From: an uncultured virus (IMG/VR IMGVR_UViG_3300000117_000017)
Taxonomy: Duplodnaviria > Heunggongvirae > Uroviricota > Caudoviricetes
Virus record (IMG/VR): IMGVR_UViG_3300000117_000017
Length of the DNA stretch: 20,000 bases
Direction: 5' to 3' (one strand)
Positions 5,604 to 20,000 of this stretch are shown piece after piece. The notes below the pieces were generated by a model. It was given only the letters and a program-made list of their open reading frames with translations, was not told the origin of the DNA and ran no database searches. A program made the translations under genes and the position numbers. Each line of letters starts with the position of its first letter. Position 1 is the stretch's first letter.

Positions 5604-5608
5604 GATTC

Positions 5609-5616
5609 TATTTATA
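5609..5616 (-). promoter_or_regulatory. T4-type late promoter TATAAATA
   Basis: Exact TATAAATA on the minus strand, 5 nt upstream of the ATG at 5603 and just downstream of a terminator. Confidence 0.8.
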
Positions 5617-5630
5617 ATAGTTTACAACTT

Positions 5631-5652
5631 AAAAAAGCGCCCTTACGGACGC
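5631..5652 (-). terminator. Rho-independent terminator
   Basis: Minus strand GCGTCC-GTAA-GGGCGC hairpin (GNRA loop) followed by T6, downstream of the 5674..6141 stop. Confidence 0.85.
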
Positions 5653-5673
5653 AGTATTAATTTTTAAATCGTT

Positions 5674-6141: not shown

Positions 6142-6152
6142 ACTATTATATA

Positions 6153-6317
6153 TTAGCGGTCACGTCTCTTGAATGTTACACTTTTGTTAAACCTTTTCTT
6201 TTGAGAAGAATTATTACGTTTCCTATCTTCTGGACGATAATTAGGATCATAATGTTCGTATCCACGAATTCCATTTTCTTTTGCCCAAGCGGCAATCATA
6301 TCAAGTTTATGTTTCAT
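6153..6317 (-). CDS. Small basic hypothetical protein (54 aa, MKHKLDMIAAWAKENGIRGYEHYDP...)
   Basis: Read manually; ATGA overlap with upstream stop; fills the gap in the operon. Confidence 0.7.
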   Translation of the reverse strand: MKHKLDMIAAWAKENGIRGYEHYDPNYRPEDRKRNNSSQKKRFNKSVTFKRRDR

Positions 6318-6721
6318 TTTTGAAACCTGACTGTATATGTTTTTCCTTCGTATTGGAAAGTGACTGTTGAATGAGAGTAGACTGTTCTAGACTCTTCCTT
6401 ATAACGCGTTTGATTCCTGCAGTATCTCTTAACACCGCTACTAGCGCTACTATTTGAATGACCAAGCATGCCACCAATAATAGCTCCGATTGCTCCACCA
6501 TCTTTTTCTCCTTTGATGTTGTTACCTAATATTCCACCGATAATTGCTCCAGCAAGAGCATCTCCGGTCTTGTCACCCGATGTGACTTGATCTCTACAAA
6601 CTTCAACTGTATAAGGTGTTTGACTTATGACAGACTTATAGTGATCTCGTACTTGATTAGCATGTGCAGAACCTGTAAAAAACACTAAGCTTGCACATGC
6701 TATATACGTTAATTTATTCAT
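6314..6721 (-). CDS. Glycine-zipper 2TM domain protein with signal peptide
   Basis: N-terminal signal (…GSAHA); GAIIGGILG…GAIGAIIGGMLG repeats. Confidence 0.8.
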   Translation of the reverse strand: MNKLTYIACASLVFFTGSAHANQVRDHYKSVISQTPYTVEVCRDQVTSGDKTGDALAGAIIGGILGNNIKGEKDGGAIGAIIGGMLGHSNSSASSGVKRYCRNQTRYKEESRTVYSHSTVTFQYEGKTYTVRFQK

Positions 6722-6936
6722 GATTGGTTTATCTCCTTCAATTGATCAACTAAACTTTTCGATTCTTTTGGGTTTTCTACTAGTTGAGTGCGAGCCGCAT
6801 ACAACCTTTCGAGTCTTTTCTTTACAGATTTAACTTTCTTAGATTTATTTTCCCAAAAACTTATCTCATTAAGAACTCTATCCATTCCCATAGACATGGC
6901 TAGAGTGTCTTTAAATACACTCCGTGATGTATTCAT
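6718..6936 (-). CDS. Hypothetical protein
   Basis: 72-aa ORF translationally coupled on both sides. Confidence 0.7.
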   Translation of the reverse strand: MNTSRSVFKDTLAMSMGMDRVLNEISFWENKSKKVKSVKKRLERLYAARTQLVENPKESKSLVDQLKEINQS

Positions 6937-7121
6937 TATTTAAGTTTCCATAATATATACTCTTCACCATTCGCTTCAAGAGTTATCGCAGGGACACCAG
7001 ACGGTGCTTGCTTACCGACGTATTCCCATTCATAACCATCTTTCATTTGGCTGTTAGCTGTTTCTCTAAATTCTTGCGTATTCATACTGAACATCGCAAT
7101 GACCAATACTATGATTCCCAT
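6936..7121 (-). CDS. Small hypothetical protein with hydrophobic N-terminus
   Basis: 61-aa ORF, TAATG overlaps, AAGGAG RBS upstream. Confidence 0.7.
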   Translation of the reverse strand: MGIIVLVIAMFSMNTQEFRETANSQMKDGYEWEYVGKQAPSGVPAITLEANGEEYILWKLK

Positions 7122-7312
7122 TATTTTTCTCCTTCTATTTTATAAATTGGGGTTATTGCTATTTTATCAATATAATCATTATTATAATAAGTTCGTGTTA
7201 CAACTTCTTTTACTAGTTGACTACCACGAATTTTAAATGTTGTAAGTTCCCTAGACAGTACACCTTCACTGTCTAGGAGATCAAATGCTCGTTTCAAAGG
7301 ACCATCAGTCAT
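7121..7312 (-). CDS. Hypothetical protein
   Basis: 63-aa ORF, TAATG overlap with the DUF932 gene. Confidence 0.7.
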   Translation of the reverse strand: MTDGPLKRAFDLLDSEGVLSRELTTFKIRGSQLVKEVVTRTYYNNDYIDKIAITPIYKIEGEK

Positions 7313-8271
7313 TATGCAACCTCTGCAAACTTTAATGCTGTGTTAAGAGCATTTCTTTTTTTAATCTGGTTTCCACCAAACCATGAAGAGTAAAGTCTGT
7401 TGTCAGAATTTCTACCTTGTAGATGATCTGTAACATAAGTTACTGAGTTGAATGCTTGCCACCAAGAACCTTCTGCATACTTTGCACCGGGTTGTTGCTC
7501 TAAAGCATCGTAACATGCAATCGCATTCTTTGAAAGAGTTTCCATAGAAAGAGATCTGTTTTGAACTCTCTTATCCGCAGTTCTTGGATAAACATTATTA
7601 TAGAACTCAATAAGTGAATCAATGTTGTATCTTTTAGAACCTAAAAACTCTGCCATTTCTTTATAAGTCTTTAACTTATCAGATGCAATGCCAAGAGCTT
7701 TCTTAACTTCGTTAGAATTGAATTCAACTCTATGACCAACTTTTACAGACCTTTGAGCCTGCTGATCGAGTGAAAGTGAAAGTGTATTGTTACATACAAC
7801 TCTGATTGGCGTAAACCTAATGTCTATAGACTTACCATAGAGATGCGGATTAGAGAAAAGTAAGTAAGACTCAACTTTATCACCGCCGAAGAGATCAAAT
7901 GATTCTTTGACTTTAGCTAAAGCCCATACCATCTGTCCACCTTTAAGTGAACCTGCTGTATGCATTTCCATATCACCAGCAAGAACATACTCTGAAAAGA
8001 ATTCAAAAGCTTCTTCATTCTGAACTGGATTCCAGATCTGACCGATGTTAGTCAAGACTTTATCGTCTGAACTTCTTACTAAGGCTTTCATGCCTGTAGC
8101 AACTTTCTTACCACTTGGTAGAGTTGCGTATGAGTCAACCTGATCGACCGTCCAGTCGAGACCAGCTTTCGTCATCATTTGGTTTGGTGTAAGATCATTG
8201 CTGACCGGTACGCCTAGACCATGCCATGGTACTTCACCTGCATATGCCATTGTTTCAACTTGATGTGCCAT
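7312..8271 (-). CDS. DUF932/DUF945 family phage/plasmid protein (TIGR03299-like)
   Basis: MAHQVETMAYAGEVPWHGLG, PVQNEEAF, TAGSLKGG, TPIRVVCNNTL and WQAFNSVT motifs; AGGAGG RBS. Confidence 0.9.
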   Translation of the reverse strand: MAHQVETMAYAGEVPWHGLGVPVSNDLTPNQMMTKAGLDWTVDQVDSYATLPSGKKVATGMKALVRSSDDKVLTNIGQIWNPVQNEEAFEFFSEYVLAGDMEMHTAGSLKGGQMVWALAKVKESFDLFGGDKVESYLLFSNPHLYGKSIDIRFTPIRVVCNNTLSLSLDQQAQRSVKVGHRVEFNSNEVKKALGIASDKLKTYKEMAEFLGSKRYNIDSLIEFYNNVYPRTADKRVQNRSLSMETLSKNAIACYDALEQQPGAKYAEGSWWQAFNSVTYVTDHLQGRNSDNRLYSSWFGGNQIKKRNALNTALKFAEVA

Positions 8272-8289
8272 AATATATTCCTCCTAAGG

Positions 8290-8412
8290 CTATTGATTTG
8301 AATTTTGTTGGATACAACCAGGTGCAAGACCTTCGGTTGTACATGGATCTTCGATTGCGCCGATAAGTAAGACACATGCTAAGACTGATGTTATTGCTAA
8401 TAATTTTTTCAT
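8290..8412 (-). CDS. Small secreted/membrane peptide (40 aa, MKKLLAITSVLACVLLIGAIEDPC...)
   Basis: Read manually; first ORF after an early promoter, AAGGA RBS, signal-peptide-like N-terminus. Confidence 0.65.
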   Translation of the reverse strand: MKKLLAITSVLACVLLIGAIEDPCTTEGLAPGCIQQNSNQ

Positions 8413-8447
8413 AATATAAATTGTTCCTTTTTAATTATTATAGATCT

Positions 8448-8476
8448 ATTATACCACATTTTTTCTAAGATGTAAA
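8448..8476 (-). promoter_or_regulatory. Sigma70-type early promoter (repeat copy 1)
   Basis: TTTACA-17 nt-TATAAT with extended -10 (TGTGG) and AT-rich UP element. Confidence 0.85.
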
Positions 8477-8489
8477 GGAAAAAATGCAT

Positions 8490-8627
8490 TTAATTTAAAA
8501 ATTTTTCAATTATTTCTTTAAAGAAAAGATAAGCACCGTAGCAATAAACTACTACGATGATTGTCTTTAAAGTTTTATTCATGGAGTCGTCCGCCATGTA
8601 CACCCAGTCATGATACTTCTTTGGCAT
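8490..8627 (-). CDS. Small membrane protein (45 aa, MPKKYHDWVYMADDSMNKTLKTIIVVVY...)
   Basis: Read manually; TAATG overlap with 8627..8812; one hydrophobic segment. Confidence 0.65.
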   Translation of the reverse strand: MPKKYHDWVYMADDSMNKTLKTIIVVVYCYGAYLFFKEIIEKFLN

Positions 8628-8812
8628 TATGCTGCACTCCTTATTAGAATTTTACCTTGATCAAGCTTAGTAAAAATAATTTCAAGTAATCCAATTCGAT
8701 CTAAAGTATCATCAGATGGATTTGGTAACTTTACTAAAGAAGTATATTCATTTTGGTATGCAGTGAGCTTTGTCATAGTCATTGAGCTCATCATGTGTTC
8801 TGCTTTCTTCAT
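8627..8812 (-). CDS. Hypothetical protein
   Basis: 61-aa ORF, GGAGG RBS, coupled to upstream ORF. Confidence 0.7.
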   Translation of the reverse strand: MKKAEHMMSSMTMTKLTAYQNEYTSLVKLPNPSDDTLDRIGLLEIIFTKLDQGKILIRSAA

Positions 8813-9108
8813 TACGCTACCTCCTTAAAACCAATTCTTGCAACTTCAAACTTTGTAGCCGCACCGTCAGCATCGAATATGGTGAACTCATCTCCAACCA
8901 TTGAGCTGCGAAGAGGTGTACCATCAAAGTTGTGGTGGCATACTGTTACACCAGATTGTGGATTTTCAGACCAAGACTTGAACACATTTTGTGTCTTACC
9001 GAAGGCATCCTGTAGAGCCATTTGAGTATCTGTAAAAGGTGTTGCAATTGATGCAGCAGTATATGGAACCGCACCGTAATTGTTATTAAAAGTAATTGAA
9101 ACTATCAT
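8812..9108 (-). CDS. Hypothetical early protein, possibly YodL-like
   Basis: 98 aa, GGGAG RBS, follows an early promoter; LRSSMVGDEF resembles the YodL-like (H/R)SxSVxD motif. Confidence 0.6.
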   Translation of the reverse strand: MIVSITFNNNYGAVPYTAASIATPFTDTQMALQDAFGKTQNVFKSWSENPQSGVTVCHHNFDGTPLRSSMVGDEFTIFDADGAATKFEVARIGFKEVA

Positions 9109-9153
9109 TATATAAACTCCCGTTAAATAGTTAATTTTTTATTTTATAGTACT

Positions 9154-9182
9154 ATTATACCACACTTTTAACTTAATGTAAA
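9154..9182 (-). promoter_or_regulatory. Sigma70-type early promoter (repeat copy 2)
   Basis: TTTACA-17 nt-TATAAT with TGTGG extension; -35/UP region identical to copy 1. Confidence 0.85.
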
Positions 9183-9195
9183 GGAAAAAATGCAT

Positions 9196-9354
9196 TTAAT
9201 TTGAATTTTTTTCATGAGCAATCGTGACTCGATAACCCGGCTTTTCACACCAGATCTCTACGTGGTCTTTCATCATGCCAATTGCGTGCTTCATGTCATT
9301 GCATTCGGCACGTGTAATAAGCTCATCATTTTGAAATACGTAAACTACAAACAT
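9196..9354 (-). CDS. Small hypothetical protein (52 aa, MFVVYVFQNDELITRAEC...)
   Basis: Read manually; AGGAG RBS 6 nt upstream of the ATG. Confidence 0.65.
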   Translation of the reverse strand: MFVVYVFQNDELITRAECNDMKHAIGMMKDHVEIWCEKPGYRVTIAHEKNSN

Positions 9355-9363
9355 CGGCAACTC

Positions 9364-9585
9364 CTAAACTAAGTTAGGAAGTTTAGGCCAGTCTTCGCCC
9401 TTGCCGTTGATGCCCATCTTTTTGTCAAGGTGAGCGCATACGAGTTCGAGCATGAATGACGGATTGTCGGTGCAGTACATATCAAAAGCAATCAAGCCTA
9501 CGAGACCGTCATATACAAAGTCATCGACTTGGTGAGTCTCCATATAGTGTTCGATTGCGTTGCGTTCGGTGGTTACATTAAACAT
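9364..9585 (-). CDS. Hypothetical early protein
   Basis: 73 aa, AAGGAG RBS, directly after an early promoter. Confidence 0.75.
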   Translation of the reverse strand: MFNVTTERNAIEHYMETHQVDDFVYDGLVGLIAFDMYCTDNPSFMLELVCAHLDKKMGINGKGEDWPKLPNLV

Positions 9586-9615
9586 TTAAAACTCCTTTTG
9601 ATTTAATATGTATTA

Positions 9616-9644
9616 ATTATACCACAGTTTTAAAAGATTGTAAA
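9616..9644 (-). promoter_or_regulatory. Sigma70-type early promoter (repeat copy 3)
   Basis: TTTACA-17 nt-TATAAT with TGTGG extension. Confidence 0.85.
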
Positions 9645-9671
9645 GGACTTTTTTCACTTATTTAAAAGTTT

Positions 9672-10271
9672 TCACTTAACATGTTCATTATACGTGTGAT
9701 GTAGTTCTCCGTGTTCTCTTCTGTAGTCTCTTTCGTGTATAGAGTATATGTGCGTGAGTATGTTATGTAGCGGATGTAGAGGCGACACGAAAGCGCCAGG
9801 GTACGGATTTTTAGATAGTATAAAACTGTCTGGATCTACCAGAATATACTCGTCTCCGTTAAAGATATAGTTGTGTGTGCCGGCGTCATTATGAAACCAC
9901 ACGGTGTCTATCATGCTCGAGTACTCTGCCATGTTGGATAAGTTTTGTAAGATCGTGGAAAAGACTTTGTACGCCACTCCATGATTGAGATTACCGTCTC
10001 TCCAAAAATGGTGTTCTACCGAAGTTCCCTCAACGTAGTCCATCACGATCCTGCTCTCGTTCACATCGTAAACTCGTGGTACTCCTCCGTACATGTTATA
10101 GTACGCGTCATAATGATACCACCAGTCTCGCATCCATCTCTTCTTTGGTACTGTAAAAGTCTTTATGACCTTATCTCCGTCGCGTTCTATAGTCGCGTGA
10201 TGAGACTTTTTAATTATCTGTTTCATTTCAAGATTTTTTTTTCTCTTAAGCAGGTTTTTTTTACTCAGCAT
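9672..10271 (-). CDS. Protein-kinase-like (APH/RIO/Kdo-kinase-type) protein
   Basis: KVIKT (beta3 Lys), VPRVY, IVMDYVEG (hinge), FHNDAGTHNY (HxD..N catalytic loop), LVDPD (metal-binding Asp). Confidence 0.7.
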   Translation of the reverse strand: MLSKKNLLKRKKNLEMKQIIKKSHHATIERDGDKVIKTFTVPKKRWMRDWWYHYDAYYNMYGGVPRVYDVNESRIVMDYVEGTSVEHHFWRDGNLNHGVAYKVFSTILQNLSNMAEYSSMIDTVWFHNDAGTHNYIFNGDEYILVDPDSFILSKNPYPGAFVSPLHPLHNILTHIYSIHERDYRREHGELHHTYNEHVK

Positions 10272-10963
10272 CCTTGACCGAGTATACCGTGTGATGGTAC
10301 GGCATTCTCTTTATCGACATTCTCAGCGAGCTCCGCATCATAGAAGTACTCTTCCGTATCTCCGAGTCGGTACTCATTGCCATTCTCGACCTGATAGTAC
10401 TCGGTAGATACTTTAAAGTCCGGCATCTTCGGATTCTTCGGTGTCAGACTATTATCATACACTCTCATTCGATTATTCGGATACAGACAGTATTGCCCAT
10501 TCTCGAGTTCAAGCAAGTTGAAAGACTTATGCTCGTCCGGCTGCTCTGCCGTAGAGTAATCAATCTCATCCGCATGTATATGGTAGTTATCCAAGGTAGC
10601 AATATAGGAACCCTTTACAAATCCATGATTCTTTGTATAGACTTCAAAATCCATAGAGCCTATAAACTGTTTCTGTATACATGTAACACCGTAGTCCATG
10701 CAATTCCAGAACTGTAGATCGGGTAATGCCATATCAACAGAGGGTGTCTCTGGATCAGCAACAAAGGCACTGATCGGTAGTTTATCGAATAAGGCACCGT
10801 ACTCGGGTAAGAATGTTTCGAAATAGAAGGCACGACCCGGGATACTCTTAGCGGATACCCAGTGACCCTCGACGAATTCACCGTGTCCATCCTGGAGATC
10901 TCTCAGATACTCACGGCGTACCCATACTTTTTGGTTGGGTATATTACAAATTAAATGGGATAT
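10265..10963 (-). CDS. Conserved phage hypothetical protein (232 aa) with probable ATA start
   Basis: The frame of ORF 10265..10732 is open a further 77 codons to an ATA at 10963, 7 nt after AAGGAG; in-frame TAG at 10982-10984 bounds it. Confidence 0.75.
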   Translation of the reverse strand: MSHLICNIPNQKVWVRREYLRDLQDGHGEFVEGHWVSAKSIPGRAFYFETFLPEYGALFDKLPISAFVADPETPSVDMALPDLQFWNCMDYGVTCIQKQFIGSMDFEVYTKNHGFVKGSYIATLDNYHIHADEIDYSTAEQPDEHKSFNLLELENGQYCLYPNNRMRVYDNSLTPKNPKMPDFKVSTEYYQVENGNEYRLGDTEEYFYDAELAENVDKENAVPSHGILGQGC

Positions 10964-11213
10964 TACAAAGCTCCTTTGTTTCTATAGTTATCTATATGGT
11001 TACACAAAGTCTGAGGGAAGAAATTTCTCGAGAAAAAAAAATTTGTCAAAAAGGTATTCAGACGACAACCGAGGACAGGCTACAAGGCCACCTGTTATAC
11101 CACTGCGAAACTCTCCAATATAAACCCCTTTATCAGACACTGACTGAGCACCCTAACAGTAGTCCTCTATAGACTCTATCCTCTCAGATCCAGAAGGGCG
11201 CTCGGTGTCACTC

Positions 11214-11462
11214 CTACGAGTGGAGTTCGATATCCTTGGAGTGCATAGTACAGAGGTTTCTGTTATCAATCATATAGAGTGATCTATTACTAATATCTCT
11301 ATCGGTAGTCTCGAGGGATACTAATTCCTCTCCGATATCCTTATCGTATGTACTCCATAGATTGGTAGCGAAGTATACTGACAGCTTCTCGGTCTCACCC
11401 TGATAGACTCTCTGTACCTGTTCTCCGTTAGATTTGATTGAAGTTAAGATAGTATTAAACAT
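11214..11462 (-). CDS. Hypothetical early protein
   Basis: 82 aa, AGGGAG RBS, own early promoter. Confidence 0.7.
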   Translation of the reverse strand: MFNTILTSIKSNGEQVQRVYQGETEKLSVYFATNLWSTYDKDIGEELVSLETTDRDISNRSLYMIDNRNLCTMHSKDIELHS

Positions 11463-11494
11463 ATATTTTTCTCCCTTTAAAATAATATAGTATT

Positions 11495-11522
11495 ATTATA
11501 CCACACCGTGCGAGAATGTAAA
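11495..11522 (-). promoter_or_regulatory. Sigma70-type early promoter (repeat copy 4)
   Basis: TTTACA-16 nt-TATAAT with TGTGG extension. Confidence 0.75.
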
Positions 11523-11881
11523 GGACTTTATGCGTTTTTATGTGATTTATTTTTGTACTAAGAAAAAATCTCCGCGAGTCTGACGGCATTAAGGTTCCCT
11601 TCTCTCCTCCCCGATACTGTAGTTTTACTCGATATACATAGTATAGAGTACTTTACACAGATTACACAGACACCATATGAGGTTATGGATAACCTTTTCT
11701 ATATAGGATATAGTACACGTGACCACACCCGATTATCTATTACTCTATATAGTAGTTATTACTATAGCGTACTGTTCTGTGAGTGTATTAATGAAGTTAT
11801 ATGGAGTATGAGAGACATGTATTATTGGATGACCCTATATTGTTCTATTATAGGATGTATTATATGGATGATATGTAGGAT

Positions 11882-12067
11882 ATGAGTAATCAATTAACGG
11901 TAAAAGATCAAGTAGTAGTGGCGTTTTATTCCTTATTAATCCTTTATTCTTTAAAGGTAGGGATGTCGAGTCATCTGGGTGTATCGATATTTGGATTCTT
12001 TTGTATGTGGATGAATCTGAAGATGTTTGATGTATATGCGTTTAAGAAGAAATATGCACAAAAATGA
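11882..12067 (+). CDS. Small membrane protein
   Basis: 61 aa with two hydrophobic segments, immediately upstream of the radical SAM gene. Confidence 0.6.
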   Translation: MSNQLTVKDQVVVAFYSLLILYSLKVGMSSHLGVSIFGFFCMWMNLKMFDVYAFKKKYAQK

Positions 12068-12081
12068 AATGACACAGTGAT

Positions 12082-13014
12082 ATGAGACTCGACGGTAAGA
12101 AAATCTTATCTATAGACAGAGACGTGTCTGACTTGACGATAATAGACTGGGTACTTGGTAACACTTGTAACTTCAATTGCTCTTACTGTTTTCCTAACGC
12201 CAACACCGGCACCGACAGAGTTCCAAGACTCGACGATGTCTTAAAAAGAAATGTATATCATCTGTTGAAAGAGATCGATGCTGTAAGTAAACAAAGGATA
12301 GTGTTTAACTTTGGTGGAGGTGAACCAACACTGTATCGCGACATCGTTCAGTTGATGGACTTCTTAAGACCTTTTGGTGAGATTGGTTTTGTATCGAACG
12401 GAAGTCGAACTGTAAGATGGTGGAAGCAAAACCTACAATATATCGATCACGTATTGTTGTCTTATCATTCTGAATATACGGATCTCGAACACATGGCCAA
12501 AGTTATCGAGTGTATCAAGGACGATGTCGGTTTACGAGTACATGTGATGGTAAATCCTAAGTTATTTGACGAGTGTATCGACGCGTATAGTACTCTATCA
12601 GACAGATTTAGTGATGTTAACTTTCAACTTAAGACTTTAAGAGAAAACGGAAGAGTGATAGAGTACTCGCTCGAACAAGAGGTGATCATCAAGGATAACA
12701 TACACCAACCTCTCATGAAACCATCTTGTAAAGTAAACTGTGATGGAGAGATCTTTGATCTACAACTCCATCACGTGAAGAATTTACGAGGTACTTTTAC
12801 TGGATATCGTTGTTACGCTCATCACGACTTCATACAGATAGACAGTAGAGGTTTTATAGGAACAATGTCGTGTGGACAAAACTTTACGAAAAAATCAAAC
12901 ATTTATCTTAAGTCTTTTGTCGATAATTTTATATTGCCTAAATATAGTATAAGTTGCGAACGAGACATTTGTGGATGTATAGGTTTACTTTGTTCTAGGA
13001 AAGAATATGTATGA
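12082..13014 (+). CDS. Radical SAM protein with C-terminal Cys-rich (Twitch/SPASM-like) region
   Basis: CNFNCSYC (CxxxCxxC), FGGGEPTL, VSNGS; C-terminal CYAHH…IDSRG…SC…CERDICGC. Confidence 0.9.
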   Translation: MRLDGKKILSIDRDVSDLTIIDWVLGNTCNFNCSYCFPNANTGTDRVPRLDDVLKRNVYHLLKEIDAVSKQRIVFNFGGGEPTLYRDIVQLMDFLRPFGEIGFVSNGSRTVRWWKQNLQYIDHVLLSYHSEYTDLEHMAKVIECIKDDVGLRVHVMVNPKLFDECIDAYSTLSDRFSDVNFQLKTLRENGRVIEYSLEQEVIIKDNIHQPLMKPSCKVNCDGEIFDLQLHHVKNLRGTFTGYRCYAHHDFIQIDSRGFIGTMSCGQNFTKKSNIYLKSFVDNFILPKYSISCERDICGCIGLLCSRKEYV

Positions 13015-13447
13015 TACGAAAAAGATAATAGAAGAGATTATGTCTCTACCTCGCTTTGAGGATCAGATATGTTTACAAAGTGACGAGAGCGGAGACCCGT
13101 TTCTTGGCTGTGGAGTTAATCGTAACGACACAGCACTCGTAAGAAAAATCTTTGACACACCCGTACTGAACAGCATTATAGATGATCACAACCTTTATAG
13201 GACTCGAGTCATGAGAATGAGATCGAAGACGTGCTATACTTATCATCAAGATCCTACGAAGAGACTACACGTGCCCGTGGTGACTAACGACAAGTGTTTC
13301 CTAGTTGTTGATGACGAGGTAGTCAGGTGTCCTGATATCGGAAGACCTTACGTCATCGATACCACAAAGTTACACACGGCAGTCAACGCTTCTACAGAGA
13401 CTCGAATTCATATCGTTGGATGTATTCCACATGATACAAGAAATTAA
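13007..13447 (+). CDS. Aspartyl/asparaginyl beta-hydroxylase-like Fe(II)/2OG oxygenase
   Basis: YTYHQD…RLHVPVVTN…DTTKLHTAVN…RIHIV (HxD…H facial triad plus Arg). Confidence 0.8.
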   Translation: MYDTKKIIEEIMSLPRFEDQICLQSDESGDPFLGCGVNRNDTALVRKIFDTPVLNSIIDDHNLYRTRVMRMRSKTCYTYHQDPTKRLHVPVVTNDKCFLVVDDEVVRCPDIGRPYVIDTTKLHTAVNASTETRIHIVGCIPHDTRN

Positions 13448-13910
13448 CTGCATAGAGTACGATAAAGATTTAATATTACAAGAATGTGACGAGGCTTCGT
13501 ACGAACCGTACTTTGATCCTTTAGGTGGTAAGAGCCTTGACTACTGGATGATATGTAAAGACGTAGGACCTTACACGAACGAGATCAACAGACGAATGAG
13601 CAAAATTTTAGACGTACAGTGTCATCCTCGTTATTATATCTTAAAAGATAAGTGTGAAGTACCGTGGCATGTTGACAGAGGTACGAAGTGCGCGATTAAC
13701 ATGATACTGAGTACGGATCAAGACCCGATATGGTTCCGACGCGATGGCACCGTAACATCACACTCTTACTCTTTTTCACTGATCGACGTTCAGACAGAAC
13801 ATCGAGTAGAAGCTGTCACCGAACCAAGAAAACTTTTTAAGATGTCTATATTTGATATTGATTTTATGAAAGCGAAGAAGAGACTTGATCTTTACAAGAT
13901 CTCAACGTAA
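13431..13910 (+). CDS. Fe(II)/2OG oxygenase-like (cupin) protein
   Basis: VPWHVD…CAINM…IDVQTEHRV…RKLFK; ATG at 13431 preferred over the TTG at 13416. Confidence 0.65.
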   Translation: MIQEINCIEYDKDLILQECDEASYEPYFDPLGGKSLDYWMICKDVGPYTNEINRRMSKILDVQCHPRYYILKDKCEVPWHVDRGTKCAINMILSTDQDPIWFRRDGTVTSHSYSFSLIDVQTEHRVEAVTEPRKLFKMSIFDIDFMKAKKRLDLYKIST

Positions 13911-14433
13911 GTATGTTTTGCCAACAATTAATAGAGTCACTGTTATCTACACAAGTATATTTTAATTCATCAAGGACTACACAATCGAGATCGTGATTAT
14001 TTTTAAGACGTTCTCGAGTAATGTCAATAACTTTTTTCTTCTTTATATTTTGTATCGATACGAACGGATGGAGTCCCCATTCAATCGCTGTCTTAAATTG
14101 CTTTGGTATGAATAATTGAGATGCCGCAAACATACTTGGTCTTGATACTAGAGTCTTACATCTGTATTTTTTAAAGATGTAATATCTATCAGCAGCTCGT
14201 GCGCAATCATTCCATTTATCGTGAGTCCACAATCCTGAAAAAGATATCACATCATCTTCAAAGTAAAGTACGTCAAATCTGATGTAACCATCTAATCTTA
14301 CAGTTTTATAATTATTTCGATTAACGTGGTGAATGTTATCTTCGTACGCCAGTGAAAATACTCTTGATATTTCTTGTTTATCACGTACTATATTTTTGTG
14401 AGTTGCTTTCGTAATATCCAATGTATCACCCAT
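13864..14433 (-). CDS. Hypothetical protein, possibly GNAT/acyltransferase-like fold
   Basis: 189 aa; VISFSGLW…ARAADRYYIFKKYR resembles GNAT beta3-beta4/motif A; start uncertain. Confidence 0.45.
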   Translation of the reverse strand: MGDTLDITKATHKNIVRDKQEISRVFSLAYEDNIHHVNRNNYKTVRLDGYIRFDVLYFEDDVISFSGLWTHDKWNDCARAADRYYIFKKYRCKTLVSRPSMFAASQLFIPKQFKTAIEWGLHPFVSIQNIKKKKVIDITRERLKNNHDLDCVVLDELKYTCVDNSDSINCWQNILTLRSCKDQVSSSLS

Positions 14434-15128
14434 CCTGATATATCATAATGTTTTAACTTATACTGTTTGACATCTTTATGATGCTCGTCATGGTTACCAT
14501 CTCCAAATACTAACCAGTTTAACCAATTCACGTATCGTGGAGCTCCGTCTTTGTGTAAGAAGAAAGTAGTGAGGCCTTGAACCATGACGTTAATTGCCGA
14601 AGGTATACAAAATCCAAATACAACTCCTTGTGGTCCAAATAATATCGCTATCGTTGCCACGTACGCTATTATCATTAAGTAGTAGTACTTATGAGTCATC
14701 ATAAGAAACTTGTCTTTGAAAAGATATTTTACGTATCTAAGTTCGATATTATAGTCGTAATTTAAAGTTATAAGACTTAAAAATCCTTTTTTAGAGTCGT
14801 GTGGATCTTCTGGAGTGTCGTGCTTATCGTGATGTTTGTTATGAACTCCACACCAGCCAAACACTGAACCAGAGCCAGACAGTAAACCAAGAGTCGTACA
14901 TAAGTATTTTGTAAAAGTATTTCTAAACTCAAATGACTTATGAGAGTAAAATCGGTGAAAAGTACACACCATTCCTATGCACATATATAAAAAGTACATC
15001 ACTAATATTGTCACAAGATTAGTGATTGTTATTCCATACACTGATACGTAAATTAAAGACGCTATTAAATTTAATAATAGCGATAATCTTAATTTAGTTC
15101 CAGAACTCTCGAAAGTTCTCGTTAGCAA
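14388..15128 (-). CDS. Membrane fatty acid desaturase (delta-9/DesC-like)
   Basis: His boxes HRFYSH, HNKHH and HDEHH, plus DTPEDPH and transmembrane segments; TTG start with AAGGAG 7 nt upstream. Confidence 0.9.
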   Translation of the reverse strand: MLTRTFESSGTKLRLSLLLNLIASLIYVSVYGITITNLVTILVMYFLYMCIGMVCTFHRFYSHKSFEFRNTFTKYLCTTLGLLSGSGSVFGWCGVHNKHHDKHDTPEDPHDSKKGFLSLITLNYDYNIELRYVKYLFKDKFLMMTHKYYYLMIIAYVATIAILFGPQGVVFGFCIPSAINVMVQGLTTFFLHKDGAPRYVNWLNWLVFGDGNHDEHHKDVKQYKLKHYDISGWVIHWILRKQLTKI

Positions 15129-15705
15129 CTAGTTTCTCCTTAGCTTCTTTAAAAGTCATTTGTTTTATTCTTAGTTTAAATAACACTCTATCCTCGTCGA
15201 TTTGTTTTGGTACGGAATGAGCGTGATTAGTGTTAATTAATGCTACGTCATAATAAAAATGTCCTACATCCTTGAAAGATATTGGAGTCCGTTCTCCTTT
15301 TACTAAAAAATTAATAGCACATAACGTTTCGCCATCAATGTGGTAGTGAACATCAGCTCCTTCTTTTTGAGTAAGAAATCTAGGACCTAAATTATCTACC
15401 TGTAATAACCTTTTAAAAATCGCATGCAAACGTTCTGATTCACTGTTAGAATCATTATCTAAACTTGAAGATATCTTCCAATCCCTTTGATTATTAAACC
15501 AATCTTTATCCTCAACATCATAGCTGATAGTATCTTTTTCAATAAATCCTAGTCTTTTATATCTCTCAAGATTCTTTTCATTTATTGCATTATATCTAAC
15601 GGAACTAGATTCTTTTAATAACTTATCTTTATCGTGATTGATTTTAAAATGATATATAACGTCATCTTTTAAATCGTTTAATCTGTCGTCTACTATGCTA
15701 CTCAT
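15094..15705 (-). CDS. Fe(II)/2OG oxygenase-like (cupin) protein
   Basis: VHYHID…CAINF…INTNHAHSV…RVLFK; same motif layout as 13431..13910. Confidence 0.65.
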   Translation of the reverse strand: MSSIVDDRLNDLKDDVIYHFKINHDKDKLLKESSSVRYNAINEKNLERYKRLGFIEKDTISYDVEDKDWFNNQRDWKISSSLDNDSNSESERLHAIFKRLLQVDNLGPRFLTQKEGADVHYHIDGETLCAINFLVKGERTPISFKDVGHFYYDVALINTNHAHSVPKQIDEDRVLFKLRIKQMTFKEAKEKLVANENFREFWN

Positions 15706-15863
15706 TAAGATACTTGCACAGCTACGTATATTAACATACCAAAGATACCGATATTAATCATCATATTGATGTAGTGCGGGTTGGGTGTCATAATCTTTCT
15801 CCTTTTTGACTGAGGTGGTTTGTATTCATTACCACCCGTGTATTCAATGAGTCTTCCCCACAT
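15705..15863 (-). CDS. Small membrane peptide (52 aa, or 28 aa from an internal ATG at 15791)
   Basis: Read manually; GGAGG before 15863 and AAGGAG before 15791; C-terminal hydrophobic helix; TAATG overlap downstream. Confidence 0.55.
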   Translation of the reverse strand: MWGRLIEYTGGNEYKPPQSKRRKIMTPNPHYINMMINIGIFGMLIYVAVQVS

Positions 15864-15864
15864 G

Positions 15865-16077
15865 TTATCCTCCTATCCACGTGTTGACTTCGAAGACTTC
15901 GATCATCATGAAACTAAAGAGCAGAAGTAGAATACTCCACAGTATCAGTTTACCACTGAAGTTTGTCGCCGCCATCTTGATCGCGATCAGTTCATTACCG
16001 AGGAATCTGAGTGCCAGTTCAAACTCGTTGTGTTCATCTTTAATAACGATACCGTTCTTTTTTTCTACTTCTGCCAT
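15865..16077 (-). CDS. Small membrane protein
   Basis: 70 aa, C-terminal TM segment, AGGA RBS. Confidence 0.7.
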   Translation of the reverse strand: MAEVEKKNGIVIKDEHNEFELALRFLGNELIAIKMAATNFSGKLILWSILLLLFSFMMIEVFEVNTWIGG

Positions 16078-16086
16078 AATTTTATC

Positions 16087-16320
16087 CTATTGTTTTTCGC
16101 CTACATAAGCATATAGCTTATTTGCGGTTTCAATGAGATCAACCGGCTGATACATCAGTGGTGAGTGATCATTGACCGCGTCCATGATGTCCATGCGTTT
16201 TTCTTGCGCCTGATCGATCATTCTATACATAATATCCTGTTGTAAACAGAACTGTGTATCGGCCATCTCTTTGGCCATTCTTAAAGTTTCGAGTCTTATT
16301 TCGTATGCGTTTTTAGACAT
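16087..16320 (-). CDS. Conserved phage hypothetical protein
   Basis: 77 aa, AGGAGG RBS; NAYEIRLETLRMAKEM…ANKLYAYV pattern recalled from T4-like phage ORFs. Confidence 0.75.
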   Translation of the reverse strand: MSKNAYEIRLETLRMAKEMADTQFCLQQDIMYRMIDQAQEKRMDIMDAVNDHSPLMYQPVDLIETANKLYAYVGEKQ

Positions 16321-16343
16321 ATTGTCCTCCTGTGTGTGTTAAT

Positions 16344-16605
16344 GGTGAGATTCTGTTTCCACGCTCTCACCGGGCGCATAAGAATTAAGCAGCTTGCGCT
16401 AACTCTTGAGGTGCAAAATTATCGTTTGCATTTAGTATATTGTTCGCATTAACCGAGCTTACATCCGGATAACTCCACATCGTTATTGTACCTGTCGATC
16501 CTATTTCAGCCCCATCAGAAATACTCGATAATAGTATTTTTGGTGGAGCTGTCGGGTACTGCCCCCGAGTCCAGTGAACTTTTCACTTTGTTTCATCGTT
16601 ATATA
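16344..16605 (-). ncRNA. ssrA: Circularly permuted (two-piece) tmRNA, alphaproteobacterial type
   Basis: Minus strand: acceptor piece ending TCGGG-GGCAGTA-CCCGA-CAGCTCC-A-CCA (CCA ends 16541); 27-nt intervening hairpin; coding piece starting GGGGCTGAAATAGGATCGAC (16513), giving a G3-U70 pair; tag ANDNFAPQELAQAA* at 16429-16385; outer ends approximate. Confidence 0.95.
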
Positions 16606-16611
16606 GTATAT

Positions 16612-16640
16612 ATTATACCACAGAATTCGCCGTTTGTAAA
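16612..16640 (-). promoter_or_regulatory. Sigma70-type early promoter (repeat copy 5) driving the tmRNA
   Basis: TTTACA-17 nt-TATAAT with TGTGG extension. Confidence 0.85.
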
Positions 16641-16649
16641 GGATTATTT

Positions 16650-16657
16650 TATAAATA
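16650..16657 (+). promoter_or_regulatory. T4-type late promoter TATAAATA
   Basis: Exact motif 22 nt upstream of ATG 16680, with a GAGGAG RBS between. Confidence 0.8.
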
Positions 16658-16679
16658 GTACTGAAGAAGAGGAGTTATT

Positions 16680-17159
16680 ATGCCAGTAGCAGAAATACTA
16701 GCGGGTATCGCATTGGTGAAGTCAAGTGTAGATTTCATTAAGTCTAACATTGATACCTGTAAAGACATCGGAGAGTTAGGTAGTCACATTGACGCATTAT
16801 TTCGTGGTAAAGACGAAGTCAATAAGAAGTCGAATAAGCGTGGTTTAGGAGTCAAAGAACAGTTTGACACGGCACATATCGCAAGAGAAACGATTGACGC
16901 AAGACTTGCGGCGGAACAACTACAAGAAATTTCAACACTCATTAATCTACGATTTGGACCGGGTACATGGCAAGGAATTGTTGATGAACGCGCAAGGCGA
17001 ATACAAGAACAGAAAGAAGCCGAGAAACAAGCGCGTATCGATAAGCGTAAAGCCGATGCCGAAACATGGGCCGACATTAAGATGGTACTCATGGTTATGG
17101 GTGCGGCGGTCGGTGGAGTTGCGGCAGTCTTTGGTGCGATCTATTATAGTAATCAATGA
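16680..17159 (+). CDS. Hypothetical coiled-coil protein with C-terminal transmembrane helix
   Basis: 159 aa, strong RBS, late promoter. Confidence 0.8.
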   Translation: MPVAEILAGIALVKSSVDFIKSNIDTCKDIGELGSHIDALFRGKDEVNKKSNKRGLGVKEQFDTAHIARETIDARLAAEQLQEISTLINLRFGPGTWQGIVDERARRIQEQKEAEKQARIDKRKADAETWADIKMVLMVMGAAVGGVAAVFGAIYYSNQ

Positions 17160-17485
17160 TAAAGTTTTTTCTTATCTTTTGCGTTATAGTATCTACGGCA
17201 CTTGCGGGTGCTAAGACGGTCGGTACAAAGAAAGACTATACTCGTCAACAGAAGATACAACGTGGTACTATCGTTGAAAAGAAGTACACCACATGTAGAT
17301 TAAAGAAGATCATACAATCAAGAAGTGGTGAACAGGCGTGTATATATCAGGGTGGTAATAAAACATATGAGTTGATGTTTGACAACAATTGTCCAAAACA
17401 ATTCAAGTGTGTATACAATCCAAATAGTAAAGAACCAAACATCGATAATGTGATGGATAGTTTAAATTCAATAGGTAAAAAGTAG
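17156..17485 (+). CDS. Secreted hypothetical protein with four Cys in the mature part
   Basis: Signal-peptide-like N-terminus; ATGA overlap. Confidence 0.75.
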   Translation: MIKFFLIFCVIVSTALAGAKTVGTKKDYTRQQKIQRGTIVEKKYTTCRLKKIIQSRSGEQACIYQGGNKTYELMFDNNCPKQFKCVYNPNSKEPNIDNVMDSLNSIGKK

Positions 17486-17493
17486 GAGCTGAT

Positions 17494-17637
17494 ATGTTAG
17501 GTGAATCAAATGTAGGTGAAGAGAGAAAGTGTAGATATTGCGGACATCGATGTCACTGTTATTCAAGTGGATGTCCCGAGTGTATGAATGACGTGTGTCA
17601 GAAATGCGAATGTGGTAAAGATGATATTCAAACATGA
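17494..17637 (+). CDS. Cys-rich metallothionein-like peptide (47 aa)
   Basis: Read manually: MLGESNVGEERKCRYCGHRCHCYSSGCPECMNDVCQKCECGKDDIQT; AGGAG RBS; 9 Cys and 2 His. Confidence 0.7.
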   Translation: MLGESNVGEERKCRYCGHRCHCYSSGCPECMNDVCQKCECGKDDIQT

Positions 17638-17902
17638 GAATATGATACTAGATATGACGATATCGTCTAAGTCTAAATTATATAAAAATGATAAGTTAGT
17701 GTTCATGGGTGATGGTTATAAAGCCATCACAATAATGTTAAATAATAGTAAGAATAATGCTCCAGTGAAAGATAAGTTTTGGGCTCAACTCTCTACAAGA
17801 GAGAAGCCAAAATTTGATAAATCAGAAGATGCTCTTGAAAAACTCAGAAGAGAAGCTCAAGCCTCGATAGTTAAAACAGAAACTAAGAAGAAACGAAGAT
17901 GA
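17621..17902 (+). CDS. Hypothetical protein
   Basis: ORF track 17588..17902; ATG at 17621 preferred because it reduces overlap with the Cys-rich ORF. Confidence 0.65.
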   Translation: MIFKHENMILDMTISSKSKLYKNDKLVFMGDGYKAITIMLNNSKNNAPVKDKFWAQLSTREKPKFDKSEDALEKLRREAQASIVKTETKKKRR

Positions 17903-18117
17903 TACACGCATTTTTATTAATGGTATATTTAGGTTCTCGTGTAGAGAGTCAAGATATGTATTTTGCTGACATTGATCGATGTAAGTACTTTGCTGAAAGA
18001 TTAAACAATCAACCTGGTGTTCCAAATAGAGTCGCACAAGAAGATGCGCCTAAGTTCCTATCATATACGGCGATATGCGTACCTAAGCGCATCGGTAAGA
18101 ATACTAAAGTTTATTAA
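17899..18117 (+). CDS. Small hypothetical protein (hydrophobic N-terminus, two Cys)
   Basis: 72 aa, ATGA overlap. Confidence 0.7.
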   Translation: MIHAFLLMVYLGSRVESQDMYFADIDRCKYFAERLNNQPGVPNRVAQEDAPKFLSYTAICVPKRIGKNTKVY

Positions 18118-18215
18118 GCTGCTTTTAATAATAGACGATAGTTCAGTATCTTATGAACTAAAGCACGTTTACGAGCCTTAACAAACATCTTCCATTGAAA
18201 TGGTCTGTAAGTCAT
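18114..18215 (-). CDS. 33-aa basic peptide downstream of the riboswitch (MTYRPFQWKMFVKARKRALVHKILNYRLLLKAA)
   Basis: Read manually; GGGAGG RBS; lies directly 3' of the glnA-like RNA. Confidence 0.7.
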   Translation of the reverse strand: MTYRPFQWKMFVKARKRALVHKILNYRLLLKAA

Positions 18216-18247
18216 TTTGCCACCCTCCCTAGTTAATAGTTAGAGTG

Positions 18248-18291
18248 CGTTCCTTCAGCGATTGCTTACTTCCGCCCTTTACGGGTGAACG
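18248..18291 (-). ncRNA. Glutamine riboswitch (glnA motif / glutamine-I-like)
   Basis: Minus strand CGTTCA-CCCGTAAAGGG-CGGAAGTA-AGCAATCGCT-GAAGGAACG: P1 CGTTC/GAACG, P2 hairpin, E-loop AGTA/GAA, P3 hairpin. Confidence 0.8.
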
Positions 18292-18304
18292 TTTAATGTA
18301 ATAC

Positions 18305-18312
18305 TATTTATA
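18305..18312 (-). promoter_or_regulatory. T4-type late promoter TATAAATA
   Basis: Exact motif 13 nt upstream of the riboswitch P1. Confidence 0.75.
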
Positions 18313-18314
18313 CA

Positions 18315-18662
18315 CTAATCGGTGTTATATCTATATTCTCTATCAGAATCAACACTTGCATATTTATCGAATTCATCCATATCATGGACATACAACTGAA
18401 TGATAGCATAGTGTAGCACCTTCAGTAAATCTTTACGAGCATCTTTACTCGTACCTTTTTTACCATATCTTTGAGCATACTTCATAATGTTACCGATACA
18501 GAAACCTGTACCGTGGCCACCGTCAATTATAAATTCTGTAGCCTGAAAGTGCTGTCTTGAATAATGACCAGTATAAGTTGAGTCAATTACTCTTAGCAAC
18601 TCTTCAACATAATCTTTTTCATTAAATTTATATTCACCTTTCGGTTCTTTAGTTTTATTCAT
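18315..18662 (-). CDS. DUF3310-like protein (T7 gp1.7 nucleotide-kinase-related)
   Basis: HY…QATEFI…GFCIGNIMKYAQRYGKK…DLLKVLHY pattern. Confidence 0.75.
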   Translation of the reverse strand: MNKTKEPKGEYKFNEKDYVEELLRVIDSTYTGHYSRQHFQATEFIIDGGHGTGFCIGNIMKYAQRYGKKGTSKDARKDLLKVLHYAIIQLYVHDMDEFDKYASVDSDREYRYNTD

Positions 18663-19029
18663 GCTCGCCTCCAGGGTCGTTAGGGTCTAATTCAATCTTT
18701 TGTAGTCTTCCATTACCGGATAAGTACATTACTTGTCTTGATCTACTCGATGTATGATAACCGTTCTTTAAGAAGAATTGTGGTTTTCTTTTTGCAGTTT
18801 CAAATGCAGCGACTGTAACTGTTATTGCAGCTAAGATAAAAATATGTGCTATAGCCGTGATACCGAATATCCACATACTACTAAAGTACATTGAAAACAT
18901 AATACACCACATCCAAGCGAGCACTTGCATTATCATATGTCTTGTATTTAAGTGCGGTATATTCTTCAAAGGATTTCTATCATGATCCATGACTGAATTC
19001 CAACTATCATATACGAATTTACTCACCAT
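18655..19029 (-). CDS. Conserved hypothetical membrane protein
   Basis: 124 aa, two TM segments, NPLKNIP…RHMIMQVLAWMWC and DPGGEHE motifs. Confidence 0.75.
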   Translation of the reverse strand: MVSKFVYDSWNSVMDHDRNPLKNIPHLNTRHMIMQVLAWMWCIMFSMYFSSMWIFGITAIAHIFILAAITVTVAAFETAKRKPQFFLKNGYHTSSRSRQVMYLSGNGRLQKIELDPNDPGGEHE

Positions 19030-19180
19030 CGTCTTTAGACCTTTTATTATCTCTTACAATTACTTTAATTGAAAATGGATTTGGATCTTCTTCATCGCAC
19101 CAATCACATGGTACACCCTTCTGAAATCCCATTATATCTCTTTTCACACAACAGTAGTGTTCCCACCATTCTTCTTCCAT
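19019..19180 (-). CDS. Small Cys/His-containing protein (53 aa, MEEEWWEHYCCVKRDIMGFQKGVPCDWC...)
   Basis: Read manually; TAATG overlap with the hydrolase stop; HxC…CxxC possible Zn site. Confidence 0.65.
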   Translation of the reverse strand: MEEEWWEHYCCVKRDIMGFQKGVPCDWCDEEDPNPFSIKVIVRDNKRSKDDGE

Positions 19181-19731
19181 TATTTTTCCCATCTATAGAA
19201 AATATGATTAGCTATTATTAGAGTTTTAGTTTTTTGTTTACGCCATGATGGAAATACATAGTCGGCATGGTAATGTGTTGCACCATAAGTTATATCATCT
19301 TTATATTGACCAAAGAATATCGTTCTAGCTATTTGAAGTGCAACATCATAAACTTCTCTATCATATATAGGAATATCATCGCTTTTACCATCACAAAACC
19401 AGCTGAATTGACATCTGTTTTTAACCGGAAAGTATTTTGTTTTGTCTTTCCATGATGGTCTAGTAGGACCTTGTTGTATAACTTCACAATAAGTATTAGG
19501 ATAACGATCATCGCTAACACGGTTATCAACAACAAATGCAACCGCAAACATACCTTTAACTGGCTGGTTGCGTGCTTCCCAATAGATGTTATCGGCTAAA
19601 CATACAATCTGTTGGTGTGCGGTACCTTCATATTTCGATGCTGCATATGATTGTGGACTACAGAATGATAGTCCTATAAATCCTATAGTACCTGCAATAA
19701 ATGCTTTCATGGCATTGATATTGTTAAGCAT
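19180..19731 (-). CDS. Cell wall hydrolase, SleB/Hydrolase_2 family
   Basis: CLADNIYWEARNQ (catalytic Glu), VDNRV, CQFSWFCDGK, GATHYHADYV and NHIFY motifs; N-terminal signal/TM. Confidence 0.92.
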   Translation of the reverse strand: MLNNINAMKAFIAGTIGFIGLSFCSPQSYAASKYEGTAHQQIVCLADNIYWEARNQPVKGMFAVAFVVDNRVSDDRYPNTYCEVIQQGPTRPSWKDKTKYFPVKNRCQFSWFCDGKSDDIPIYDREVYDVALQIARTIFFGQYKDDITYGATHYHADYVFPSWRKQKTKTLIIANHIFYRWEK

Positions 19732-19912
19732 ACCAGTATAACTCTACTTCATCGGCAATTTGATCTTTGTCCAACCAGTTGAACTCTCTGTTTCTCATGA
19801 TCTCGACATGTTCTTTGGCTTGAGATAACGAATCAGCATCCTTAACGATATGCTCTGCGTTACTGTAAAACTCGTCCATTGAATCCATAACTAAACTTTT
19901 AACTTTTGCCAT
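19724..19912 (-). CDS. Hypothetical early protein
   Basis: 62 aa, AGGGAG RBS, after an early promoter. Confidence 0.75.
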   Translation of the reverse strand: MAKVKSLVMDSMDEFYSNAEHIVKDADSLSQAKEHVEIMRNREFNWLDKDQIADEVELYWYA

Positions 19913-19945
19913 AATATCTAACTCCCTTTTAATTATTATAGATCT

Positions 19946-19974
19946 ATTATACTACATTTTTCAGCAAATGTAAA
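19946..19974 (-). promoter_or_regulatory. Sigma70-type early promoter (repeat copy 6)
   Basis: TTTACA-17 nt-TATAAT; flanks nearly identical to copy 1. Confidence 0.85.
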
Positions 19975-20000
19975 GGAAAAAATGCACTTTATGCACATTT

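Follow-up and report, generated by a model that had tools for sequence, protein, structure and literature searches.

The stretch of DNA analysed here, referred to below as the window, comprises 20,000 nucleotides of the uncultured virus record IMGVR_UViG_3300000117_000017 (IMG/VR; Caudoviricetes) and carries, on its minus strand at 16341–16644, a two-piece (permuted) transfer-messenger RNA (tmRNA) gene. An earlier note, made from the letters of the window, had proposed a complete gene of this kind, encoded by a phage and driven by an early promoter, without giving its strand. Completeness is borne out by a full-length match to the Rfam covariance model alpha_tmRNA, RF01849: at 16341–16644 the gene scores 133.9 bits (gathering threshold 50, E 7e-37) and covers positions 1–355 of 355 of the model. 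The model tmRNA_permuted, RF04321, is likewise matched over its whole length (123.4 bits against a threshold of 47, model positions 1–213 of 213, at 16385–16603). Among 14 control genomes, RF01849 matched one, that of Caulobacter. The gene order is permuted, with the T-arm, the 3′ acceptor strand and CCA located upstream of the 5′ acceptor strand and the tag frame, and every element that the note had named was located in the minus-strand sequence by direct reading and a base-by-base pair check. The gene is AT-rich (41% GC). None of 200 shuffled sequences folds as well as its predicted transcript (z −3.5), whose minimum-energy fold includes the acceptor stem, the hairpin of the intervening segment and the 3′ hairpin.

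The acceptor piece stands first in the gene (16541–16603; all positions in this paragraph are on the minus strand) and extends from the 5′ strands of the closing helices to CCA, as delimited by the Rfam alignments, the sequence and the pair check. Read from the sequence, it contains the T-stem and loop (16568–16552), the 3′ acceptor strand CAGCTCC (16551–16545), a discriminator A (16544) and an encoded CCA (16543–16541). The T-loop, GGCAGTA in the DNA, aligns as GGCAGUA to the alpha consensus GGCgGUA. A 27-nt intervening segment follows (16540–16514), with a 7-bp hairpin, AAATACT (16539–16533) and AGTATTT (16525–16519), that is evident both in the sequence and in the minimum-energy fold. This segment is presumed to be removed in maturation, by analogy with the two-piece tmRNA of Caulobacter, for which Keiler, Shapiro and Williams in 2000 reportedly demonstrated by experiment both processing into two RNAs and tagging. 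The coding piece (16344–16513) opens with the 5′ acceptor strand GGGGCTG (16513–16507), which completes an acceptor stem of seven pairs including G3:U70, and continues with the AAATAGGATCGAC block, the 3′ strands of the closing helices, a small hairpin (16468–16453), the tag frame and a 3′ hairpin. The tag frame (16385–16429) begins at the resume codon GCA for alanine (16429–16427), ends in GCT GCT TAA, with the stop codon at 16387–16385, and encodes ANDNFAPQELAQAA. The 3′ terminal hairpin, GGTGAGA/TCTCACC with the conserved loop GCGTGGAAACAGAA, was placed at 16371–16344 by the Rfam alignment and the fold.

The surroundings of the gene are those of a phage. Positions 524–20000 of the window are collinear with, and 99.995% identical to, a linear IMG/VR record of 73,320 bases (G001) that CheckV estimates to be about 41% complete. 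It carries T4-like structural genes (gp3, small and large terminase, sheath, tube, portal, protease, scaffold and major head protein; gp3 and 16–23), T4-like replication and transcription genes (UvsW, gp55, gp47/46, gp45, gp44/62, RegA, gp43, UvsX and gp41) and genes for Hsp20, MazG and PhoH, so that the description of the tmRNA as phage-encoded stands. Open reading frames (ORFs) of the window match the phage families DUF6267/phrog_455, phrog_1221, endolysin and DUF3310, together with cytidyltransferase, DUF932, cell-wall hydrolase, ferredoxin, radical SAM and fatty-acid desaturase families. No integrase family was matched among the 27 + 63 ORFs scanned in the window and G001, no tRNA gene was called by ARAGORN in the 73-kb record, and gp33 had no match in this partial genome. 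No match was obtained when the whole window was compared by megablast with 50,697 phage records. The major head protein is 66% identical to that of C48C1, 61.7% to that of Melnitz (a phage of OM43), 59.8% and 59.1% to those of the SAR11 phages Mosig and HTVC008M, and about 57% to those of cyanomyophages. The replicon is best regarded as a lytic marine myovirus, T4-like and belonging to the pelagimyophage/Melnitz-like group, and the tmRNA gene lies in an accessory region, about 12 kb beyond the exonuclease gene.

Upstream of the tmRNA, on the same strand, a promoter is formed by an extended −35 element, TCCTTTACA (16643–16635), a 13-nt gap and an extended −10 element, TGTGGTATAAT (16622–16612); read as TTTACA-17-TATAAT with TG at 16640–16612, it has 11 of 12 consensus matches. 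Six near-identical sites of the form TCCTTTACA-N13-TGTGGTATAAT occur on the minus strand of the window, at 16640, 11522, 9644, 9182, 8476 and 19974, each in the gap preceding minus-strand genes (aligned stretches 8426–8501, 9132–9207, 9594–9669, 11473–11547, 16590–16665 and 19924–19999). Six aligned copies mean that the promoter class belongs to the phage itself, and the phage promoter claimed in the earlier note is thus confirmed as a sigma-70-like site of a repeated class. This class is probably the early promoter class of the phage, the early timing being read from the promoter type. The promoter is kept upstream of the tmRNA in two viral relatives, L036 and L049, and a third, L044, keeps the −10 element only.

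No terminator-like site was found in 15800–17200, and no T-run follows the 3′ hairpin. The first ORF after the tmRNA (77 codons, 16087–16320, minus strand) starts 23 nt past the 3′ hairpin, with the Shine–Dalgarno sequence AGGAGGA 6 nt before its ATG. Since no terminator follows and an ORF with a good Shine–Dalgarno sequence stands so near, the tmRNA probably heads a longer transcript that includes the 77-aa ORF. The product of this ORF has no PHROG or Pfam match and no alignment with gp33, and, of the three relatives aligned (L036, L049 and L044), the ORF is kept in L036 only. Marine RNA data contain related sequences: 15–18 marine RNA runs contained 5–13% of the words sampled from a 1.2-kb stretch, and contigs from four of four marine RNA libraries, from four studies, overlap the gene, with strand and ends unseen in the contigs and DNA carry-over possible. 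The overlap gives weak support at most for transcription, and gaps in the contig cover carry no meaning. Library X3 yielded eight contigs, of which those listed over 16370–16615 have a depth of 12–60. Two contigs, from X1 (16249–16399) and X4 (16295–16515), span the 3′ hairpin into the next ORF, which as contigs is no proof of a single transcript. Some of the RNA-library contigs stem from relatives, since their spacer differs.

A scan of IMG/VR with a T-arm/acceptor pattern returned at least 120 loci, and the counts for relatives given below rest on the matches listed. Together with the window and two cultured phages, the listed IMG/VR loci make up 123 T-arm matches, of which 119 have a downstream 5′ acceptor strand pairing at seven of seven positions, with spacers of 5–264 nt. 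A seven-of-seven partner may arise by chance, but the AAATAGGATCGAC block follows in all 41 aligned short-spacer copies. The RF01849 threshold was passed by all 20 viral loci tested, 19 of them at full length. The nearest copies among the loci listed are viral: L036, with 87% identity over 302 nt, L049, with 83%, and L044 and L100, which have a 160-nt spacer and about 89% identity. As a separate observation on these loci, a tRNA gene lies directly beside the tmRNA in 6 of the 20 (L036:2829–2912, L049:2730–2800, L064, L068, L016 and L028).

The Rfam-derived structure was projected onto a MAFFT alignment of 41 distinct viral copies, to which the following figures refer. Paired cells amounted to 81.6%, against 37–47% when the partners were slid, and the covariation score was 0.398, a value reached by none of 500 shuffles, against 0.07–0.103 for slid partners. 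Both partners vary in 21 of the 30 pairs, and compensatory swaps occur at variable positions of closing helix 3 as well as of the T-stem and acceptor stem. The first T-stem pair, for example, is CG in 19 copies, UA in 16, GC in 5 and AU in 1; the second acceptor pair from the outer end is GC in 31, AU in 9 and CG in 1; and the third is CG in 19, GC in 14, AU in 6, UA in 1 and UG in 1. All 41 copies retain G3:U70, though the pairing filter would also admit A:U. Compensatory changes extend to the 3′ hairpin, which reads GGAGAGA/TCTCTCC in L036 and L049 and GCCGGA/TCCGGC in L044. Because covariation among the phage copies preserves the pairing, the tRNA-like domain appears to be under selection to stay working within phages.

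The window carries a real, complete, phage-borne two-piece tmRNA gene that is under selection, and we consider it likely, with a probability of roughly 0.8, that its RNA acts with host SmpB and alanyl-tRNA synthetase (AlaRS) to rescue ribosomes during infection. In the proposed sequence of steps, host RNA polymerase would start near 16605 at the sigma-70-like promoter of the phage and make a single precursor of acceptor piece, 27-nt hairpin spacer and coding piece, with run-on into the next ORFs probable since no terminator follows. Host enzymes would then excise the spacer, leaving two RNAs held together by the acceptor stem and the closing helices. Host AlaRS would read G3:U70 and charge the CCA end, host SmpB would bring the RNA to stalled ribosomes, and translation would resume on GCA and append ANDNFAPQELAQAA. 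The benefit to the phage would lie in an added capacity to rescue ribosomes at a time when mRNAs of both host and phage undergo cleavage. The suggestion in the earlier note that this offsets RNase or toxin defences of the host is speculative.

Several observations weigh against this interpretation. ARAGORN at default and -ps settings calls no gene here; the program misses 37 of 95 distinct complete viral two-piece tmRNA genes, the present one among them (the 95 are those of the 119 viral genes with enough flank, cut loci and duplicates excluded). Closing helix 2 has two mismatches in the present copy and is weak across the 41 viral copies, with 41% of cells paired. In the covariation analysis, the T-arm and acceptor positions are partly fixed by the search pattern and the seven-of-seven filter, and the variable positions alone count. 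The tag ends in AQAA, not in the common ALAA, RLAA or AVAA. Finally, an SmpB gene was found in none of four phage records (G001, Melnitz, Mosig and HTVC008M), so that a compatible host SmpB would be required for function. With regard to ARAGORN, a permuted call made under -ps90, c[16078,16633], was rejected as misplaced and carrying the wrong tag. Since 37 of the 95 viral genes are missed, counts based on this program are too low, and surveys that relied on it undercount viral two-piece tmRNA genes.

The unusual end of the tag bears on an alternative in which the RNA is functional and its role is to alter the fate of the tagged proteins: a tag ending in QAA would compete with the host tag and lead to slower or different degradation, or the tagging of host proteins would recycle amino acids, an idea stated by Buchholz et al. 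2022 (PMC9004378). Among 83 listed viral loci with a tag ending in AA, selected by pattern, AQAA is rare (6 of 83 tags, or 5 of 67 distinct ones), as it is among cellular tags of the ANDNFA type (2 of 82), and this rare ending is common to the relatives L036, L049, L100, L059 and L082. The tags of the nearest relatives are ANDNFASQELAQAA (L036), ANDNFAPQEFAQAA (L049 and L100) and ANDNFAPQELALAA (L044). The last of these ends in ALAA and is otherwise identical to the present tag, so the Q/L position is apparently free to vary, and the majority of viral tags have the ordinary endings ALAA or RLAA. We regard a role in altered tag fate as unlikely, and ribosome rescue as the better account.

It is far less probable that the gene is a passenger, that is, all or part of a host ssrA, taken up by recombination or imprecise excision and without a role in the phage. 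Buchholz et al. point out that ssrA is a common integration site and that ssrA fragments are found in prophages (PMC9004378). Such att fragments are partial 3′ pieces beside an integrase, whereas the present gene is complete, the full-length model match taking in its two pieces as well as the tag and 3′ hairpin, and lies in a T4-like phage with no integrase matched in the ORFs scanned; an att-site fragment is thereby ruled out, as the earlier note had maintained. The phage's own promoter class upstream and the structure-preserving covariation among phage copies also speak against a passenger, as does the comparison of identities, the best cellular matches reaching 69–80% over parts against 83–89% for viral contigs. 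A BLAST search with the 304-nt gene found no close cellular copy in 401 alphaproteobacterial genomes, 196 of which had partial matches (69–80%, or short conserved blocks); this negative rests to a small extent on one unpublished genome of the 401, G245, which gave a weak partial match only. Three pattern scans of named cellular records likewise gave no close copy, the best among the matches listed being 71–80% over parts.

That the contig is cellular or chimeric, with the tmRNA as the host's own gene, is hardly credible: close look-alikes do occur in metagenome-assembled genomes (MAGs) titled Rhodobacteraceae, Saprospiraceae and Actinomarina, but the window is collinear with the 73-kb record that bears the T4-like structural and replication module, its ORFs match the phage families named above, and the look-alike contigs are probably mis-binned phage DNA, since they are short (4–71 kb) and the titled taxa are ill-suited to an alpha-type tmRNA. 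A Rhodobacteraceae bin (G005; loci L142, L146, L147 and others) holds eight alpha_tmRNA matches on separate contigs: one canonical at 284 bits, six phage-like at 51–114 bits and one below threshold. The contigs with the extra copies are likely phage or prophage.

The kind of gene described here is not new. An alpha-type two-piece tmRNA behind an early-type promoter in a marine T4-like phage was published in 2022 (PMC9004378). In that report, Buchholz et al. describe a two-piece tmRNA of alphaproteobacterial type in Melnitz, whose host is OM43; Mosig and 17 of the 47 related contigs share it. They count 53 ARAGORN-called two-piece tmRNAs, 50 of them aquatic, in 18,146 phage genomes (PMC9004378). 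In our hands, RF01849 matched three of four cultured relatives (Melnitz at 106.7 bits, HTVC008M at 83.8 and Mosig at 67.6), and no alpha_tmRNA match was found in the fourth, C48C1.

Melnitz ssrA (MZ577097, 45984–46436) resembles the present gene in its setting in a T4-like marine myophage, the sigma-70-like promoter directly upstream, the T-loop GGCAGTA, the ANDN... tag and a glutamine riboswitch in the neighbourhood. The two differ in the intervening segment (140 nt in Melnitz, 27 nt here), the tag (ANDNYVPVDYALAA against ANDNFAPQELAQAA) and the core (AGGTTCGAC against AGGATCGAC), and they have only short conserved blocks in common. The riboswitch lies directly 3′ of the tmRNA in Melnitz and 1.6 kb 5′ of it here, where four ORFs on the opposite strand intervene. 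A slot between a PD-(D/E)XK exonuclease gene and gp33 holds the tmRNA in Melnitz, Mosig and HTVC008M; the present gene lies outside it. The 140–160-nt spacers of Melnitz (L010:1600–1740) and L044 (3033–3185) hold an ATG-started frame, seen by eye in Melnitz. The genes of Mosig (annotated as SsrA, MT647606, 111467–111805) and HTVC008M (NC_020484, ~145103–145414) are also two-piece and above the threshold of the alpha model, in phages of the same group by capsid, but have divergent T-loops and shorter tags (GEDNFALAA and ANFNEYALAA), and the present copy, at 133.9 bits, is much closer to the alpha consensus.

In the phage collection, the only blastn matches were the roseophage vB_RpoS-V10 (MH015255) and the Rhodobacter phage RcXuper (OP186293), through a 37-nt T-arm/acceptor block at 94.6% identity. 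Both carry full alpha-type two-piece genes (112.6 and 106 bits), but these are 147-kb Rhodobacterales phages not listed as T4-like, with spacers of 109–111 nt and the tags ANINNAPMEMAIAA and ANENFAPMEMRLAA. Full-length alpha-type tmRNA genes stand without annotation in three records of the phage collection: NC_020484.1 at ~145103–145414 (HTVC008M), MH015255 at ~9181–9572 (vB_RpoS-V10) and OP186293 at ~3216–3632 (RcXuper). With the cellular Caulobacter gene, as represented by RF01849, the present gene shares the order of acceptor piece, spacer and coding piece, G3:U70, the encoded CCA, a T-loop of the form GGCNGUA, an ANDNFA... tag and a 3′ hairpin with an ...AACAGAA loop (Rfam consensus); it differs in being AT-rich, in its minimal spacer and in its phage promoter. 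What the present copy adds is the ARAGORN miss, the position outside the exonuclease–gp33 slot, the AQAA tag end and a riboswitch with its own ORF.

Contrary to the earlier note, the gene does not by itself identify the host class. Melnitz, with its alpha-type ssrA, infects OM43 (Methylophilales), which is not an alphaproteobacterium (PMC9004378), and because of this counter-example the tmRNA type does not give the host. The capsid protein is of no further help, being about equally far from those of phages of OM43 (61.7%) and SAR11 (59–60%). The ANDN start of the tag also fails as an alphaproteobacterial mark, its 18-mer being present in records titled Bacteroidota, Spirochaetota, Clostridia and others. 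The alpha type tells the origin of the gene, not its present host, and caution is needed in inferring hosts from it. Many of the matches in scans with the tag 18-mer and with the AGGTTNGAC core (104 and at least 120 loci) are marine single-cell genomes titled "uncultured Alphaproteobacteria", and no record titled Pelagibacter was found among the 80 matches listed for each. Only some 130 positions can be aligned, most of them invariant, too few to resolve a tree. An exact 25-nt T-arm/acceptor string had six matches: three Saccharibacteria MAGs, one Parcubacteria, one "Saprospiraceae" and one Rhodobacteraceae bin. Candidate phyla radiation (CPR) genomes were rejected as a clue to the host, the tested loci L135 and L138 scoring 29.9 and 24.9 bits, below the RF01849 threshold. 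These CPR loci, with L136 and L139, may carry a permuted tmRNA of a different type, or some tRNA-like element.

A wider and more tentative reading, which we hold to be possible rather than probable, is that this tmRNA lineage was not captured recently from a host but has long been resident in marine T4-like phages, moving between slots, using the phage's own promoter class and serving as the leader of an early operon, with no close cellular counterpart in the genomes sampled, and that its rare AQAA ending may alter what becomes of tagged proteins. The tmRNA type would in that case record the history of the phage lineage, not its present host, and phage tmRNAs would form an independently evolving branch of the trans-translation system.

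The glutamine aptamer of the window (RF01739, 56.4 bits, 18244–18293, minus strand) is followed by the Shine–Dalgarno sequence AGGGAGGG and a basic ORF of 33 codons (18114–18215, minus strand; peptide MTYRPFQWKMFVKARKRALVHKILNYRLLLKAA). The cassette of aptamer, Shine–Dalgarno sequence and peptide occupies 18114–18312 (minus strand) in the window, and recurs at L036:260–439, L044:2751–2920 and, in Melnitz, L010:1926–2096. Its position relative to the tmRNA changes, from 2.6 kb upstream in L036 and 120 nt upstream in L044 to directly downstream in Melnitz. The peptide is conserved and basic, with 31–34 aa, and no Pfam or PHROG match was found for the small riboswitch ORFs. A Shine–Dalgarno sequence and an ORF of 26–65 codons, from several peptide families, follow within 70 nt in 109 of the 115 viral aptamers whose downstream sequence is long enough, while only 7 of the 115 have an alpha-type tmRNA arm within 2.5 kb (offsets −408 to +1799; loose pattern, not the covariance model). 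The riboswitch thus belongs with the small ORF, not with the tmRNA. In the published account, the tmRNA is described as "controlled by" a glutamine riboswitch (PMC9004378). For the present tmRNA such control is not supported, the aptamer lying 1.6 kb upstream beyond four plus-strand ORFs and having its own Shine–Dalgarno sequence and ORF; the separation of the two corrects that reading. A role of the 33-aa peptide as a regulator of nitrogen status is a guess. In the Melnitz record, the peptide ORF is unannotated, and an ORF on the opposite strand is annotated instead.

Immediately before the aptamer, the window has a TATAAATA box. Another precedes the divergent plus-strand block at 16680–18117, 22 nt before its first ATG; four such boxes occur in the 20 kb, no more than expected by chance. 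Elsewhere in the window, host-like auxiliary genes are found at 5674–6141 (minus strand) and 13007–15128, encoding Asp/Asn beta-hydroxylase-like, radical SAM, fatty-acid desaturase and Na/Pi-cotransporter-domain proteins, the last being fragment-sized at 155 aa.

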